Shown here: positions 5,412 through 49,481 of the stretch, piece after piece
How the letters are laid out: each line of letters begins with the position of its first letter
How positions within the stretch are numbered: the stretch's first letter is position 1
NCBI RefSeq assembly: GCF_030013595.1
Contig: NZ_CP122768.1
Origin: Escherichia coli
Lineage (GTDB): Bacteria > Pseudomonadota > Gammaproteobacteria > Enterobacterales > Enterobacteriaceae
Direction: 5' to 3' (one strand)
Length of the DNA: 64,000 bases
The notes under the pieces: generated by a model
Database searches by the model: none
Seen by the model: the letters and a program-made list of their open reading frames with translations, nothing else
What the model was told of the DNA's origin: nothing
Program-made: the position numbers and the translations under genes

Positions 5412-6548
5412 ATGGGACAGAGTAAAAAATTGAATAAACAACCGAGTTCGCTTTCACCGCTGGTGCAATTGGCGGGAATTCGCAAATGCTTTGATGGTAA
5501 AGAGGTCATTCCCCAGCTGGATCTGACTATCAACAATGGCGAGTTCCTCACGCTGCTTGGCCCTTCTGGCTGCGGTAAAACAACCGTTCTTCGCCTGATT
5601 GCAGGTCTGGAAACTGTTGATTCCGGACGCATCATGCTGGATAACGAGGACATCACCCACGTTCCGGCGGAAAACCGCTATGTGAACACTGTTTTCCAAA
5701 GCTACGCACTTTTCCCCCACATGACCGTGTTCGAAAATGTGGCCTTTGGGTTACGCATGCAAAAAACCCCCGCTGCTGAAATTACGCCCCGCGTGATGGA
5801 AGCCCTGCGGATGGTGCAGCTGGAAACCTTCGCTCAACGCAAACCGCATCAGCTCTCTGGTGGTCAACAGCAACGCGTCGCCATTGCCCGCGCGGTGGTT
5901 AACAAGCCTCGTCTGTTGTTGCTGGATGAGTCGCTCTCAGCGCTGGATTACAAACTGCGCAAGCAAATGCAGAACGAGCTGAAAGCGTTACAGCGTAAGC
6001 TTGGCATTACATTCGTCTTCGTGACTCACGACCAGGAAGAAGCACTCACCATGTCGGACAGGATTGTGGTGATGCGCGATGGTCGCATTGAGCAAGACGG
6101 CACGCCGCGTGAAATCTATGAAGAGCCGAAAAACCTGTTTGTTGCTGGGTTTATTGGCGAAATCAATATGTTTAACGCCACTGTCATCGAACGTCTAGAC
6201 GAGCAGCGCGTACGCGCCAACGTTGAAGGCCGCGAATGTAATATCTACGTTAACTTCGCCGTTGAACCGGGGCAAAAACTGCATGTTCTGCTGCGCCCGG
6301 AAGACTTACGTGTTGAAGAGATTAACGACGACAACCACGCTGAAGGGCTGATTGGTTACGTTCGCGAGCGTAACTACAAAGGCATGACGCTGGAGTCGGT
6401 TGTTGAACTGGAAAATGGCAAGATGGTGATGGTCAGCGAATTCTTCAATGAAGACGATCCTGACTTTGACCACTCTCTCGACCAAAAAATGGCCATTAAT
6501 TGGGTAGAAAGCTGGGAGGTCGTACTGGCTGATGAAGAACACAAGTAA
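5412..6548 (+). CDS. potA: spermidine/putrescine ABC transporter ATP-binding protein
   Basis: 378-aa ORF with Walker [10 protein letters not shown] and ABC signature LSGGQQQR. Confidence 0.95.
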
Positions 6549-7395
6549 GTTCCAGAATGTAGTGATTGTCACTATTGTCGGTTGGCTTGTGTTGTTTGTC
6601 TTTCTGCCCAACCTGATGATCATTGGCACCAGCTTTTTGACCCGCGACGACGCCAGTTTCGTCAAAATGGTCTTTACGCTGGATAACTACACGCGTCTGC
6701 TCGATCCGCTCTATTTTGAAGTGCTATTGCACTCGCTGAATATGGCGCTGATCGCCACCCTCGCCTGCCTGGTGCTGGGCTATCCTTTTGCCTGCTTTCT
6801 GGCGAAGCTGCCACACAAGGTGCGTCCGCTGCTGCTGTTTCTGCTGATTGTTCCGTTCTGGACCAACTCATTGATTCGTATCTACGGGCTGAAAATTTTC
6901 CTCAGCACCAAAGGCTATCTCAACGAGTTTTTGCTCTGGCTGGGCGTTATTGATACACCAATTCGCATCATGTTCACGCCCAGTGCGGTGATTATCGGTC
7001 TGGTTTACATTCTGCTACCGTTTATGGTGATGCCGCTGTACTCCAGTATCGAAAAACTGGATAAGCCGTTGCTGGAGGCGGCGCGCGATCTCGGTGCCAG
7101 CAAGTTGCAGACCTTTATCCGCATCATTATCCCACTGACGATGCCGGGAATTATTGCCGGATGTTTGCTGGTGATGCTGCCAGCGATGGGCCTGTTCTAT
7201 GTGTCCGACCTGATGGGCGGTGCGAAAAACCTGCTGATCGGTAACGTCATCAAAGTACAGTTCCTCAATATTCGTGACTGGCCGTTTGGTGCAGCCACCA
7301 GCATTACGCTGACTATCGTAATGGGCCTGATGTTGCTGGTTTACTGGCGCGCTTCTCGTTTGCTGAATAAGAAGGTGAGCGATATAGATAATTAA
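6532..7395 (+). CDS. potB: spermidine/putrescine ABC transporter permease with a prophage-derived altered C-terminus
   Basis: Polytopic permease ORF; the last codons (…KKVSDIDN) lie inside the prophage junction, whereas the native end (…KKVELE-stop, overlapping the potC start) is found at attR near 48670-48690. Confidence 0.85.
7364..7377. repeat. attL core: 14-bp direct repeat tgaataagaaggtg
   Basis: Identical 14-mer at 48665-48678 next to the integrase; lies within potB 3' codons. Confidence 0.75.
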
Positions 7396-7622
7396 TCCTT
7401 TATATTCAATGAAATAAGTTGGTTTTTAAAGGGTTTTATTGTTGAAGGCAACCGCGTTGTGTCTTTCACCAAAATCAATCAGTTGCGTTCTGGTTTTGGA
7501 GAATGTTTTTTGAGGCTTTTTGTTAAAGCCTGTTATGCATTGCCTCAATTAATAACCGTTTCCCCAGCCCTCCCAACCTTCAAAAGTCGGGAGGGTTCTA
7601 AACACCAGTTGCGATTGATTTA

Positions 7623-41976: not shown

Positions 41977-42384
41977 ATGAAAAACGAAACCTTCGGTGCT
42001 CGCCTCTTACATAGGCGTAAAAAATTAAAACTGTCTCAGGCCGCATTAGGTAAGCTGGTCAAAGTGGCTCACGTAACAATTTCTCAATGGGAAAGAGATG
42101 AAACACAGCCGGCGGGGAAAAGATTATTCGCACTGAGCCAAGCGCTTCAGTGCTCACCGACTTGGCTTCTTTTTGGGGATGAAGATAAACAACCAGGCGA
42201 ACCGATCCCGGATAATCAGCCAGCCATTCTGACAGAAGATCAAAAAGAGTTACTTCAACTGTTCGACGCACTGCCTGAGTCAGAGCAAAAGGCCCTGTTG
42301 TCAGAGATGCGTGCTCGAGTTGAAAATTTCAACAAACTTTTTGAAGAACTACTCAAAGCTCGCAAAAGAAGCGCAAACAAATAA
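41977..42384 (+). CDS. prophage repressor (XRE-family HTH, cI/DicA-like)
   Basis: 135-aa ORF with N-terminal HTH (LSQAALGKLVKVAHVTISQWER); flanked by related operator motifs. Confidence 0.75.
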   Translation: MKNETFGARLLHRRKKLKLSQAALGKLVKVAHVTISQWERDETQPAGKRLFALSQALQCSPTWLLFGDEDKQPGEPIPDNQPAILTEDQKELLQLFDALPESEQKALLSEMRARVENFNKLFEELLKARKRSANK

Positions 42385-44639: not shown

Positions 44640-47102
44640 ATGAGCGCTGATAAAGAAGAAATTGCACTATATTACGAAGCCAAAAATGACAAAGTCAGAA
44701 AACGCCTTGGGATTAAAGGCGGTTTTTACTGGCGCACAGCAAAAAAATTATCGATTGCAATATCACGCGGTGTTGTCGCAATGGACGATGCCGGATTTGA
44801 CGAAGAGGATTTTAAAAAACCTGTTCGCGTCCATTTACCCGTTGTGAATGACCTTCCTCCGGAAGGCGTGTTTGATACCGAATTCTGCAACCGATACGAA
44901 AAAGGCGGGGAAGATGGTATCACAATGGTACTTATCGCGCCCTCTGTTCAGGACAAACCAGCCAGCACTGACAATACCAACGTCAACGGTGAAGACATGA
45001 CTGAGATTGAGGAGAATATGCTCCTGCCAGTTTCAGGTCAGATTCTGCCTGTTCGATGGCTGGCGCAACACAACAGCGAAAAACCGATCACGCACGTTTC
45101 GCGGGACGAACTGCGCGCATTACATAACGCACAGGATGAAAAACTTCCCGCCGTTACCGCGCTGGCCATCTCAAATAAAGCAGCGCAACTCGAACCACTG
45201 GAAATTCGCGATCTCCACAAACTGGTACGCGACACTGACAAAGTTTTCCCTAATCCTGGTAATTCAGACCTGGGACTGATGACCGCTTTTTTCGAAGCAT
45301 ACCTGGGCGCTAACTACACCGATCGCGGTCTGCTTACAAAAGAGTGGATGAAGGGAAATCGTGTTTCACGTATCACCCGCACGGCTTCCGGCGCTAATGC
45401 TGGCGGCGGGAACAAAACCGATCGCAATCCGAATTTAGTACACACCTTCGATACGCTGGATGTGGAGATTGCAGCAGCCACACTTCCGATGGATTTTAAT
45501 ATTTATGAAATTCCGGGCAGCGTTTATCGTCGCGCAAAAGAAGTCGTCCGGAAGAAAGAAAGTCCGTTCAAAGAATGGTCCGCAGCACTTCGCGCAATCC
45601 CGGGTATCCTGGATTATTCCCGTGCCGCTATTTTTGCACTTATCCGGAGCGCCCACCCTGAACTTTACCTCTACAGGGTACGCCTTCAGGTGTATATCAA
45701 CGCCCACTTAACGGAGACTGATCACGAGAATCCTACCGAGGAAACTCTCGCTGCTGCACGACATACACCGGAAAAAGATATCCTGGAAGAAGTTAACCGC
45801 GAACTGGCTGCTGCTAAACACGAAACAGAAGAAGAAAAAAATAATGAGGAAAAATCACAACCGTCTGACGCAATGGCAGATGAACAGGCAACGACTGAAA
45901 CAATGGAGCCGGATACAACTGAACATCGCCAGGACACGCAATCGCTGGATACTCAGGCGCAGATAGATCCGGTTAATCAGGTAAAAGTTACCGCTGACGA
46001 AGTAAACAAAATTATGCAGGCAGCCAATATCAACCAGCCTGACGCCAATCAGTTGCTTGCTGTATCACGTGGTGAATTTGTTGCAGGGATTAGCGACCCG
46101 AATGATCCGAAATGGGTGAAGGGGATTGAAACCCGCGATTCAGTGAATCAGAACCAGCAAGAAATGGAACAGAACGACCAGAAAGCGGAAAAAAACAGCC
46201 CAAATGCGTTACAAAACGAGCCAGAAACGAAACAACCTGAGCCAGTAGCGCAACAGGAATCGGAAAAAGTCTGCACCGCCTGCGGTCAGAGCGGTGGCGG
46301 CAGCTGCCCTGATTGTGGCGCGGTGATGGGCGACGCAACATACCAGGAAACATTCGATGAAGAGAATCAGGTTGAAGTTCAGGAAAATGATCCGGAGGAA
46401 ATGGAAGGCGCTGAACATCCACACAAGGAGAATGCTGGCAGCGCTCAGGACCACGCCAGCGATAATGAAACTGGCGAGACGGCAGATCCCTTAATTGCGG
46501 TGAACGGTCATCACGTTATCACATCCACCAGCAGAGTGTGGTACCACCTGATGATCGACCTTGAAACAATGGGAACCAACACCAATGCGCCCATCGTGGT
46601 TATTGGTGCGGTTTTCTTCGACCCACAAACAGGGGAAATCGGGCCAGTATTTTATATCGTTATCAGTCTGACTGACGCAATGAATACAGGGGCTGTTCCT
46701 GACGGTGGAACCATCGAATGGTGGCTGAAGCAGTCCAGTGAAGCCAGAGCTGCCATTTTAACAGACCAGGTAAAACTGAAGGATGCCCTTTCGCGGTTTC
46801 GGGAGTTCATCAACGAATACTCAGATGAAAAATTCGTTCAGGTATGGGGTAATGGTGCAACTTTCGATAACGCAATTTTGCGCACCTCATACGAACGTCT
46901 GGACATCCCCTGCCCGTGGCGCTACTACAACGATCGCGATGTACGCACAATCGTTGAGCTGGGAAAAACCATCGGTTTTGATGCCAGAACAGCTATCCCG
47001 TTCGAAGGTGTACCCCACAATGCACTGGATGATGCCCGTCACCAGGCGAAATACGTTTCAGTAATCTGGCAAAAACTGATCCCGAGTCAGGCTGATTTTT
47101 AA
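44640..47102 (+). CDS. large multidomain protein: N-terminal domain of unknown function, acidic linker, CxxC-x-CxxC zinc ribbon, C-terminal DnaQ-like (DEDDh) 3'-5' exonuclease domain
   Basis: 820-aa ORF; C-terminus has DLET…, FDNAIL and HNALDDA motifs in exonuclease order; zinc ribbon CTACGQSGGGSCPDCG; long E/Q/D-rich linker. Confidence 0.6.
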   Translation: MSADKEEIALYYEAKNDKVRKRLGIKGGFYWRTAKKLSIAISRGVVAMDDAGFDEEDFKKPVRVHLPVVNDLPPEGVFDTEFCNRYEKGGEDGITMVLIAPSVQDKPASTDNTNVNGEDMTEIEENMLLPVSGQILPVRWLAQHNSEKPITHVSRDELRALHNAQDEKLPAVTALAISNKAAQLEPLEIRDLHKLVRDTDKVFPNPGNSDLGLMTAFFEAYLGANYTDRGLLTKEWMKGNRVSRITRTASGANAGGGNKTDRNPNLVHTFDTLDVEIAAATLPMDFNIYEIPGSVYRRAKEVVRKKESPFKEWSAALRAIPGILDYSRAAIFALIRSAHPELYLYRVRLQVYINAHLTETDHENPTEETLAAARHTPEKDILEEVNRELAAAKHETEEEKNNEEKSQPSDAMADEQATTETMEPDTTEHRQDTQSLDTQAQIDPVNQVKVTADEVNKIMQAANINQPDANQLLAVSRGEFVAGISDPNDPKWVKGIETRDSVNQNQQEMEQNDQKAEKNSPNALQNEPETKQPEPVAQQESEKVCTACGQSGGGSCPDCGAVMGDATYQETFDEENQVEVQENDPEEMEGAEHPHKENAGSAQDHASDNETGETADPLIAVNGHHVITSTSRVWYHLMIDLETMGTNTNAPIVVIGAVFFDPQTGEIGPVFYIVISLTDAMNTGAVPDGGTIEWWLKQSSEARAAILTDQVKLKDALSRFREFINEYSDEKFVQVWGNGATFDNAILRTSYERLDIPCPWRYYNDRDVRTIVELGKTIGFDARTAIPFEGVPHNALDDARHQAKYVSVIWQKLIPSQADF

Positions 47103-47163
47103 TGTTCAACCGTCGCCAGTTGTCGTTGGTATTCTGCAACTGGCGCGTTCCGGAGTGATAACC

Positions 47164-47433
47164 ATGAGCGAACAGTACCTGATAACGCTCGACGAGTGGA
47201 AACCAAAACGGTTCAGTCTCCCAATAACAAACACCACCCTGGTGAAATACGGAAAACTAGGATACATCGTTCCAAGACCACAAAAAATTCGTGGGCGTTG
47301 GCTGATAGATCGCCGGGCAGTATTTGTTGGACCTGGTGAAACAGGAATTGCGCCGGAAATTCATACTGGCGATGATGATGCACTGAAGGAGATTTTAACT
47401 CATGTCACCGAGGCCACGAAAAAACAGCACTGA
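47164..47433 (+). CDS. xis: excisionase (Xis-like)
   Basis: Small ORF just upstream of int, overlapping its start; winged-helix-like segment resembling lambda Xis. Confidence 0.6.
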   Translation: MSEQYLITLDEWKPKRFSLPITNTTLVKYGKLGYIVPRPQKIRGRWLIDRRAVFVGPGETGIAPEIHTGDDDALKEILTHVTEATKKQH

Positions 47434-48520
47434 CGTAGCCGGTCTTTACGAAAAGTTTGATCGCAGAACTGGCAGGGTTTACTACCAGTATAAAAACCCT
47501 GTGACTGGAAAATTTCACGGACTCGGAACAGACAAAGGTAAGGCAGAAAAAATCGCTTCCACAGCCAATCAGCGAATAGCTGCAGCAGAGGCTGAATATT
47601 TCATGCGCAAAATTGATGAAAGTCCGTCAGCAACAAAACGTCGGGGTATCAGATTAAAGGCATGGGTTGATCGATATCTGAAAATACAGGACGCGCGACT
47701 GAAAAATGGAGATATTGCAGCTACAACTCACAAAGAAAAAGCCCGAATGGCTGCATACCTGGTTTCCCGTCTGGGAAACCACCCATTGAAAGAACTGGAA
47801 GTAAGAGACTTTGCATTAATACTGGATGAGTGGCTGGATAAAGACATGGTCAGCACAGCGAGAGTAAATCGCGGATTATGGGTTGATATTTATAAAGAAG
47901 CACAGCATGCAGGGGAAGTTCCTCCTGGATGGAATCCTCCGGAGGCTACCCGTAAACCGATCCCTAAAGTAACCAGAGCCAGGCTCACCATGGAAGACTG
48001 GCAAAAAATTTACAATGCAACGCCTGAAAAACACTTTATCCGTAACGCAATGCTTCTTGCGATTGTTACTGGTCAGCGCCGTGATGACATTTGCCACATG
48101 CGTTTTTCAGATGTGTGGAACGAACACTTGCATATCACCCAGGGAAAAACCGGAATGCGTCTGGCGTTACCGCTTACACTACGCTGTGATGCCATTGGGA
48201 TAACGTTAAAAGAAGTTATTGATGGGTGCCGAGACAGAATATTAAGTCCATATCTAATCCATAGTCGGCACCAGAAACAACCGAAGCCGATGAGTAAAGA
48301 CAACCTGAGCGACTACTTTGCCAAAGCACGGGATCTGGCTGGGATAATTCCACCAGCAGGAAAAACTCCGCCAACATTTCATGAACAACGCTCTCTATCA
48401 GAACGGCTGTACCGTGCACAGGGTATCGATACAAAAACATTACTAGGACATAAAGTCCAGGCAACCACCGATCGCTATAACGATACTCGAGGTCAGGAAT
48501 GGGTTAAGTTGGTTATTTGA
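47402..48520 (+). CDS. int: tyrosine integrase (lambda Int family)
   Basis: 372-aa ORF with catalytic-domain motifs (R…, HxxR-like LLGH, C-terminal Y in TDRYND) next to attR. Confidence 0.9.
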   Translation: MSPRPRKNSTDVAGLYEKFDRRTGRVYYQYKNPVTGKFHGLGTDKGKAEKIASTANQRIAAAEAEYFMRKIDESPSATKRRGIRLKAWVDRYLKIQDARLKNGDIAATTHKEKARMAAYLVSRLGNHPLKELEVRDFALILDEWLDKDMVSTARVNRGLWVDIYKEAQHAGEVPPGWNPPEATRKPIPKVTRARLTMEDWQKIYNATPEKHFIRNAMLLAIVTGQRRDDICHMRFSDVWNEHLHITQGKTGMRLALPLTLRCDAIGITLKEVIDGCRDRILSPYLIHSRHQKQPKPMSKDNLSDYFAKARDLAGIIPPAGKTPPTFHEQRSLSERLYRAQGIDTKTLLGHKVQATTDRYNDTRGQEWVKLVI

Positions 48521-48559
48521 CAAACACCATATGGAATATCCGTCACCATCTCAGGAAAA

Positions 48560-48620
48560 AAGTGTTGTAAAATGCGTGGCCTAGTTTTGGGGAAACGTTT
48601 TGGAGAGATTTTGGAGAAAG
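48560..48620. promoter_or_regulatory. candidate integrase arm-type binding repeats (ttttggRga x3)
   Basis: gttttggggaaac gttttggagagat tttggagaaagg between int and attR; similar ggttttggagaat on the attL arm near 7470-7500. Confidence 0.4.
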
Positions 48621-48664
48621 GAAAAAATTGAATAAATTCAAAATCCTGAAAGTGTCCCGCCTTA

Positions 48665-48678
48665 TGAATAAGAAGGTG
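48665..48678. repeat. attR core: 14-bp direct repeat tgaataagaaggtg
   Basis: Identical to 7364-7377; followed by the native potB 3' end (gtggaactcgaatga). Confidence 0.75.
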
Positions 48679-48686
48679 GAACTCGA

Positions 48687-49481
48687 ATGATCGGTCGACT
48701 GCTTCGCGGCGGTTTTATGACCGCTATCTACGCGTACCTGTATATTCCAATCATTATTTTGATTGTGAACTCTTTCAACAGCTCGCGCTTTGGCATCAAC
48801 TGGCAGGGTTTTACCACTAAATGGTATAGCCTGCTGATGAACAACGACAGTCTGTTGCAGGCAGCTCAGCATTCATTGACGATGGCGGTGTTTTCAGCGA
48901 CGTTTGCTACGCTTATCGGTTCACTGACGGCAGTTGCGCTGTACCGTTATCGCTTTCGCGGTAAACCGTTCGTTAGCGGAATGCTGTTCGTGGTGATGAT
49001 GTCGCCAGATATTGTGATGGCGATTTCTCTGCTGGTGCTGTTTATGCTGCTGGGTATTCAGCTTGGCTTCTGGTCGCTGCTGTTCTCGCATATCACCTTC
49101 TGCCTGCCGTTTGTGGTGGTGACGGTGTATTCGCGCCTGAAAGGTTTTGACGTGCGAATGCTGGAAGCGGCGAAAGATCTCGGTGCCAGCGAATTTACCA
49201 TTCTGCGAAAAATCATTCTGCCACTGGCAATGCCAGCGGTAGCGGCGGGCTGGGTGTTAAGCTTTACCCTGTCGATGGACGATGTAGTAGTTTCTTCGTT
49301 CGTCACCGGACCAAGCTATGAAATTCTGCCGTTAAAAATTTATTCGATGGTCAAAGTCGGCGTATCGCCGGAAGTTAACGCGCTGGCAACCATATTACTG
49401 GTGCTGTCGCTGGTGATGGTAATTGCCAGCCAGCTTATTGCTCGTGATAAAACGAAAGGTAACACAGGGGACGTTAAATGA
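48687..49481 (+). CDS. potC: spermidine/putrescine ABC transporter permease
   Basis: 264-aa polytopic permease ORF; start overlaps the native potB stop. Confidence 0.95.
   Translation: MIGRLLRGGFMTAIYAYLYIPIIILIVNSFNSSRFGINWQGFTTKWYSLLMNNDSLLQAAQHSLTMAVFSATFATLIGSLTAVALYRYRFRGKPFVSGMLFVVMMSPDIVMAISLLVLFMLLGIQLGFWSLLFSHITFCLPFVVVTVYSRLKGFDVRMLEAAKDLGASEFTILRKIILPLAMPAVAAGWVLSFTLSMDDVVVSSFVTGPSYEILPLKIYSMVKVGVSPEVNALATILLVLSLVMVIASQLIARDKTKGNTGDVK

Follow-up and report, generated by a model that had tools for sequence, protein, structure and literature searches.

Two clusters of short T-rich repeats flank the ends of a lambdoid prophage of ~41 kb that sits between potB and potC in a 64-kb stretch of E. 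coli DNA (hereafter the window). Do these repeats serve as the arm-type sites at which the prophage's own integrase (Int) engages its attachment DNA, as the first-pass annotation had proposed, or do they serve another protein, or none at all? To place the repeats, we first need the borders of the element; int, xis and the att-arm features given below are on the plus strand unless stated otherwise. potA (5412–6548) and potB (6532–7395) lie on one side of the prophage, and potC (48687–49481), followed by potD, on the other. The element has the same 14 bp, TGAATAAGAAGGTG, in direct orientation at either end, at 7364–7377 in the 3′ end of potB (attL) and at 48665–48678 (attR), where it makes up the attR core (48660–48678) together with the phage-side half-site CCTTA (48660–48664). 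Host flanks joined across one copy of the core yield a 200-nt attB that is found uninterrupted and with 100% identity in other E. coli genomes, which argues for exact, site-specific insertion at the potB/potC junction. The uninterrupted site is present in 3800 of 5426 complete E. coli genomes, and int with its int-side arm in 1634 of the same 5426, including O157:H7, ATCC 25922 and E2348/69. According to papers on STEC, potC is an Stx phage site as well.

Within the attR core, CCTT and AAGG form an inverted repeat with 9 bp between the two halves, which matches the core geometry of phage lambda. By analogy with the lambda CAGCTT and AAGTTG elements, this arrangement suggests a 7-bp overlap, for which we propose TGAATAA (48665–48671) as the probable sequence. 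In an alignment of ten lineages, the core-type CCTT (CCTTNTGA) occupies the same column in relatives inserted at potC and in relatives inserted at yeeE. The insertion has consequences for the host genes as well. The 3′ end of potB is rewritten (7364–7395 and 48660–48700 of the window), so that the PotB C-terminus is encoded by codons of the phage P arm, and potC and potD now lie 41 kb away from potAB. The int gene is co-oriented with potC and we find no terminator-like site between the two; potCD may, therefore, depend on read-through from the prophage.

The integrase itself gives reason to look for arm-type sites. The int gene (47402–48520) reads toward attR and encodes a predicted heterobivalent tyrosine integrase of 372 amino acids. 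Its residues 1–64 match the lambda arm-DNA-binding domain (PF09003, Arm-DNA-bind_1; E 3.7e-21), the Phage_integrase catalytic domain (PF00589) is matched too, and alignment finds the catalytic RKHRHY set intact (R226, K249, H327, R330, H350 and Y359). Full-length lambda Int–DNA complexes are the closest solved structures (1Z1B, 1Z1G and 5J0N; E ~1e-54). The protein shares 35% identity with lambda Int and 44% with phage 21 Int, and the top non-self match in the phage collection reaches 49.7%. As Int is of the heterobivalent lambda type, arm-type sites are expected. The start of int is overlapped by an xis-like gene of 92 codons (47155–47433); its product scores 23.0 bits against the Pfam family Exc (PF07825), exactly the cutoff, and the gene carries an excisionase annotation in RefSeq relatives. 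Upstream of xis, at 44640–47102, the window encodes an 820-aa protein with an N-terminal region of the Exonuclease VIII (RecE-like) type and an Rv2179c-like 3′–5′ exoribonuclease domain, and the gene order exonuclease, xis, int is kept in most relatives.

All three closely spaced copies that the first-pass annotation had quoted between the int stop (48520) and the attR core identity are indeed present: gttttggggaaac at 48584–48596, gttttggagagat at 48597–48609 and (t)tttggagaaagg at 48609–48621. They amount to three direct copies of RTTTTGGRGAAR that start at 48584, 48597 and 48608, with a spacing of 13 and 11 bp. The similar copy reported for the attL arm near 7470–7500 exists (ggttttggagaat), but its position has to be corrected to 7492–7504. 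The same arm holds an inverted copy that had been overlooked, ATTTTGGTGAAA at 7464–7475, and in a repeat search the direct attL-arm copy pairs as an inverted repeat with TTCACCAAAATCA at 7465–7477. A motif distinct from the core sequence, then, occurs in both arms of attP, with three copies at 48584–48619 and one or two at 7464–7504.

How unusual is such a distribution? The exact string TTTTGGRGA occurs five times in the window (at 48585, 48598, 48609, 7494 and 42171) against 1.5 expected, and four of these five copies fall in the two att arms. At a background rate of ~2.4e-5 per bp, a cluster of three copies in 35 bp should arise by chance about 1e-6 times in a window of this size. We also scored both strands with a 12-column weight matrix that was built from the sites of relatives only, leaving out the window's own sites. 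The five highest scores in the 64 kb are the five candidate sites: 48608 (19.7), 48597 (19.3), 7464–7475 on the minus strand (18.0), 7493–7504 (17.3) and 48584 (15.5). The sixth-best site reaches 14.7, and the number of hits scoring at least 16 in simulated windows is 0.475. The exact copy at 42171 has a low matrix score and lies far from att, and we take it as a chance occurrence.

The annotation had tied its proposal to the fate of the repeats in related phages, and there they turn out to be the most conserved part of both arms. Relatives inserted at potB/potC were found in Citrobacter (Int identity 76%), Raoultella (75%) and Enterobacter (74%), as well as on a metagenome contig (78%) and a further contig (81%). 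C. koseri and two metagenome lineages (Int 64–65%) adjoin a sulfur-transport gene instead (PF04143, Sulf_transp; 'yeeE') together with TusA, and a Buttiauxella relative (Int 65%) adjoins a HAD hydrolase gene. All of these carry three repeats spaced by 13 and 11 bp. Searching genome contigs with Int contributed one usable relative, from Citrobacter, and a search of viral contigs with an Int alignment returned only E. coli copies of 98–100% identity, most of which end 3 bp past int. One 422-bp contig (coverage 0.83), assigned to Pseudomonas khazarica, shares 99% identity with this E. coli int and probably reflects contamination of the assembly.

As the P′ arm is almost invariant within E. coli, the conservation footprint rests on the relatives from other genera. 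We aligned ten lineages without gaps on the middle repeat; their Int proteins are 64–100% identical and they represent at least three att sites. In this alignment 23 of the 27 columns of the three 9-mers are invariant as compared to 12 of 103 columns outside, and mean conservation is 0.967 in the 9-mers vs 0.628 elsewhere. Both the spacing of the repeats and their distance to the core are constant throughout. The Buttiauxella relative has ~900 bp of inserted genes after int, and its triple repeat is found downstream of them, beside the host junction; this indicates that the repeats are a part of att rather than of the int 3′ end. In relatives that use other att sites, the arm domain of Int is 81% and 77% identical to ours while the core-binding domain is 62% and 57% identical, a pattern expected if arm recognition is kept while core specificity shifts.

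Going through the P′ arm from int toward the core, conservation begins with a block at 48558–48583 (AAAAGTGTTGTAAAATGCG...), which we take as the outward edge of the conserved att module. Some E. coli loci have unrelated genes between int and att, and in these, homology restarts at ~48558, 26 bp outside the distal repeat; the genes placed between int and the AAAAGTGTTGTAAAATGCG block in some of these strains include DUF2335 and others. Relatives at the potC site (Citrobacter, Raoultella and Enterobacter) retain the block, whereas those at the yeeE site do not. Next come the three candidate arm-type sites, which we compare with lambda P′3, P′2 and P′1, respectively. The distal one, GTTTTGGGGAAA (48584–48595), keeps its position and 13-bp spacing in the ten lineages, with G, A, T or C at position 8. 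The middle one, GTTTTGGAGAGA (48597–48608), is near-invariant over the same lineages, and in the core-proximal one, ATTTTGGAGAAA (48608–48619), TTTTGGAGAA is invariant. The remainder of the arm (48620–48659) consists of an A-tract and an AT-rich spacer with the palindrome TTGAATAAATTCAA. The GAAAAA tract is conserved and the length of the spacer is fixed, free of gaps, across lineages. We detect no IHF consensus within one mismatch in the P′ arm and no clear H′ site there; the region 48620–48659 is nevertheless a candidate for H′-like DNA bending.

The P arm on the attL side can be followed among the E. coli prophages at potB/potC, whose P arms are only 78–80% identical over 7377–7511, after which homology stops. 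This outer limit, ~7511, lies about 7 bp past the direct candidate arm-type copy GTTTTGGAGAAT (7493–7504), which we refer to as P1-like. Compared across nine E. coli P-arm variants, and within this species only, 11 of the 12 columns of the P1-like copy are invariant vs 74 of 122 (61%) in the rest of the arm. The inverted copy, at 7464–7475 on the minus strand, is poorly conserved: invariance is limited to 5 of its 12 columns, the majority of E. coli P arms have GATTTTGATAGG there, and a full match to the motif is seen in the window and in one relative. The same 12-mer, ATTTTGGTGAAA, is also the distal P′ site of three relatives. We consider 7464–7475 a candidate P2-like site that varies between lineages. 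Between the two lies a perfect IHF consensus, AATCAATCAGTTG (WATCAANNNNTTR), at 7473–7485, an H1-like element; there are only five perfect IHF matches on both strands of the whole window, and the consensus positions of this one are kept in most relatives.

Closer to the core, the block TAATTAATCCTTTATATTCAAT (7389–7410) has 20 of 22 columns invariant over the nine E. coli P arms and contains a one-mismatch IHF consensus at 7390–7402, which makes it a candidate H2-like bend site. At 7418–7441 the sequence shows a pair of direct GGTTTT(T)A repeats with a spacing of 11 bp. They sit between the core and the P2-like site, just as X1 and X2 do in lambda, and might conceivably be Xis sites; relatives have TGTTTTTG and GGTTTTGC where the window has the GGTTTT repeats. 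Just past the P arm, at 7566–7597, lies a GC-rich hairpin (z -3.9 on the plus and -4.2 on the minus strand), and relatives have a hairpin of other sequence in the equivalent spot (at ~585–615 of one such locus, L003). It could be the terminator of the tail-fibre operon or a sib-like retroregulator of int that is read across attP. One P arm, in E. coli O84:H7 Trh52, adjoins cdtA, with the core cut to AGAAGGTG and a 4-bp deletion in the IHF site; this junction looks like a decayed or rearranged part of a CDT-I prophage region.

With distances here taken from the centre of the 14-bp identity, and those of lambda given relative to its own core, the layout follows that of lambda attP closely. The P1 site of lambda is at -136.5 and the P1-like site here at 128 bp, in both cases co-oriented with the P′ sites. 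H1, bound by IHF in lambda, is at -119 as compared to 108.5 for the H1-like element, and the inverted P2 is at -106.5 as compared to 99 for the P2-like copy, which is likewise inverted. On the other side, lambda P′1–P′3 are at +59.5, +69.5 and +79.5, and the three repeats here are at 58, 69 and 82. Site orientations are equal after a strand flip, as is the polarity of the IHF site relative to its neighbours; the Int architecture is alike, and so is a total attP length of ~250 bp. There are differences, too. The lambda arm motif, CAGTCACTAT, is unrelated to RTTTTGGRGAAR, P′ spacing is 10/10 bp in lambda and 13/11 bp here, and the arm domains of the two Int proteins are only 30% identical. Counterparts of the lambda H′, Fis and Xis sites cannot be identified with confidence.

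The motif itself has its counterpart in phage 21, whose integrase is the closest characterised one (44% identity overall, 47% in the arm domain and 29% in the core-binding domain). Directly after the int stop, the phage 21 sequence (M61865) reads GTTTTGGGGAAG, GTTTTGGGGAAA and GTTTTGGGGAAG with 13/12 bp spacing, and a co-oriented ATTTTGGGGAAAG follows beyond the segment of icd homology. The four copies start at 2109, 2122, 2134 and ~2494 and span ~397 bp. Phage 21 (GTTTTGGGGAAG) and this element (GTTTTGGAGAAR) thus share a motif family; at position 8, phage 21 has G and this element mostly A, and both carry a CCAAAATCAA element ahead of the far-arm copy. The attachment sites differ: phage 21 uses icd, with a long icd-replacement segment and an attP of ~400 bp, whereas our element inserts at the potB/potC junction, with an attP of ~255 bp, and lacks the phage 21/e14 trait of integration at the icd 3′ end with a replacement icd segment. 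By sequence, this element would have the arm system of phage 21 without its att specificity. Our literature search returned nothing on the anatomy of a potB/potC attP or on arm sites of phage 21. Wang et al. in 1997 reportedly delimited the minimal phage 21 attP to 366–418 bp, with the outermost 'repeated dodecamers' included, and S. J. Schneider is said, via the same authors, to have proposed these dodecamers as arm recognition sites.

Triple repeats with the same 13/11 spacing are found further afield. PPompW IntE, which uses the ompW site, has the motif GTTTTGCAGAG with a 3′ half of GCAGA(G); Klebsiella phages at the icd site (Kp4865-4) have TTTTGATAA with a 3′ half of GATAA; Klebsiella ST13-OXA48phi12.4 has TTTTGGGGA and TTTTGGAGG; and the yeeE-site C. 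koseri prophages carry their three direct repeats at the int-side arm. The 5′ half, RTTTTG, is invariant in the PPompW IntE, Klebsiella and C. koseri members and in the element studied here. Clades whose Int is 43–50% identical to ours have a 3′ half of their own (GCAGAG or GATAA), and those of 64–83% identity have GGAGA, as here, even where core and host target are not the same. A constant 5′ half combined with a 3′ half that varies with the Int clade suggests that the motif is read by a phage protein and not by a shared host factor.

The arm-type-site reading has to be weighed against other phage and host ligands. The repeats could be sites of the excisionase, the directionality factor, instead of Int: an xis-like gene is present, Xis proteins do bind direct repeats, and the T-rich GGTTTT repeats at 7418–7441 are a further set of this kind. 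However, lambda Xis sites are confined to one arm, between P2 and the core, whereas the motif discussed here occurs in both arms, has its main cluster on the int-proximal side at the positions of P′1–P′3, and tracks the conservation of the Int arm domain. We therefore judge an excisionase role of the repeats to be very improbable. Much the same weight goes to the idea that they are sites for host proteins such as IHF or Fis, or a promoter or operator for int or potCD. The co-orientation of int and potC with no terminator-like site between them would fit it, as would the A-tract and palindrome that come after the repeats, but no IHF consensus within one mismatch is found inside the repeats and no sigma-70-like promoter in either arm. 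Moreover, the 3′ half of the motif differs between Int clades of the same hosts, the repeats persist at att sites beside unrelated host genes, and the P′ arm gives no RNA structure signal (z = +0.94). We have likewise discarded promoter or terminator functions for the arms in general, with neither a consensus promoter nor a terminator detected in them, and, on the same z value, an RNA structure in the P′ arm.

Finally, the motif is short and has an extra exact copy at 42171, as would be seen if the repeats were chance occurrences or decaying tandem duplications devoid of function. The expected frequency of the cluster, ~1e-6 per window, the 23 invariant columns out of 27 in ten lineages with diverged flanks, and the equivalent architecture in phage 21, PPompW and the Klebsiella phages all speak against this, and Int identities of 64–83% exclude that the relatives are recent copies of one sequence; we consider this explanation next to negligible. 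The repeats are, with a probability of about 0.85 in our estimate, arm-type binding sites of the prophage's lambda-family Int. The original proposal to that effect is supported by comparison, namely by the Int arm domain, conservation in both arms, the lambda layout and the phage 21 motif. A search of the accessible literature found no binding, footprinting or recombination data for this Int.

If the repeats are arm-type sites of Int, each Int protomer would use its N-terminal domain (residues 1–64) to contact a single RTTTTGGRGAAR element, with the C-terminal domains holding on to the core at TGAATAAGAAGGTG. The three tandem P′ sites, ~58, 69 and 82 bp from the core, would act together with one co-oriented P site at ~128 bp, and an IHF-induced bend at 7473–7485 would help to fold the ~255 bp of attP into an intasome capable of capturing attB between potB and potC. 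Integration would then split the sites, leaving three in attR and one or two in attL, and excision would reassemble them with the aid of Xis. Int binding of these sites, and the roles of each in integration vs excision, are what we infer from the comparisons above. The functional attP likely comprises ~255 bp, 48558–48678 joined to 7378–7511, as judged from the sequence conservation of the two arms.

Junctions of the attP type, with the order int, P′ arm, core, P arm and tail-fibre genes, exist in nature: we found them in E. coli 10205 and on four IMG/VR contigs. Such junctions represent tandem prophages or circular forms and imply that members of the family recombine at these att sites. Along with the intact int, xis and both arms, these junctions in other strains lend indirect support to the notion that the prophage is excision-competent. 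Two 'phage' records that are 99% identical over int and att (ON470612.1 and ON470619.1) include the potC flank; these are, therefore, prophage extractions and uninformative as to excision.

The variation of the motif among relatives raises a more speculative possibility, one that we put forward tentatively and would sooner bet against than for: a two-part arm code in the Int subfamily that comprises phage 21, e14 and the potC, yeeE and Klebsiella elements. The RTTTTG half, together with the fixed 13/11-bp layout of the triple repeat, might set the geometry of the intasome, while the other half (GGAGA, GGGGA, GCAGA or GATAA) might co-vary with a few residues of the arm domain. Under such a code, co-resident prophages would be kept from excising each other.

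Arm-type sites in this element would not go beyond known principles: they are an expected feature of a lambda-family attP, with an architecture like that of lambda and a motif that is essentially the one of phage 21. The most useful results are a ~255-bp attP for an integration module that is very common in E. coli, and a set of arm-motif variants that occur naturally across the subfamily. A defined attP helps to draw precise prophage boundaries, to design PCR assays of excision (attB/attP) and to build integration vectors for potB/potC. Should the two-part code prove true, these variants could serve to decipher and redesign the specificity of the arm domain, and the subfamily would offer orthogonal IHF-dependent integration modules, of which ~30% of E. 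coli genomes already carry one.
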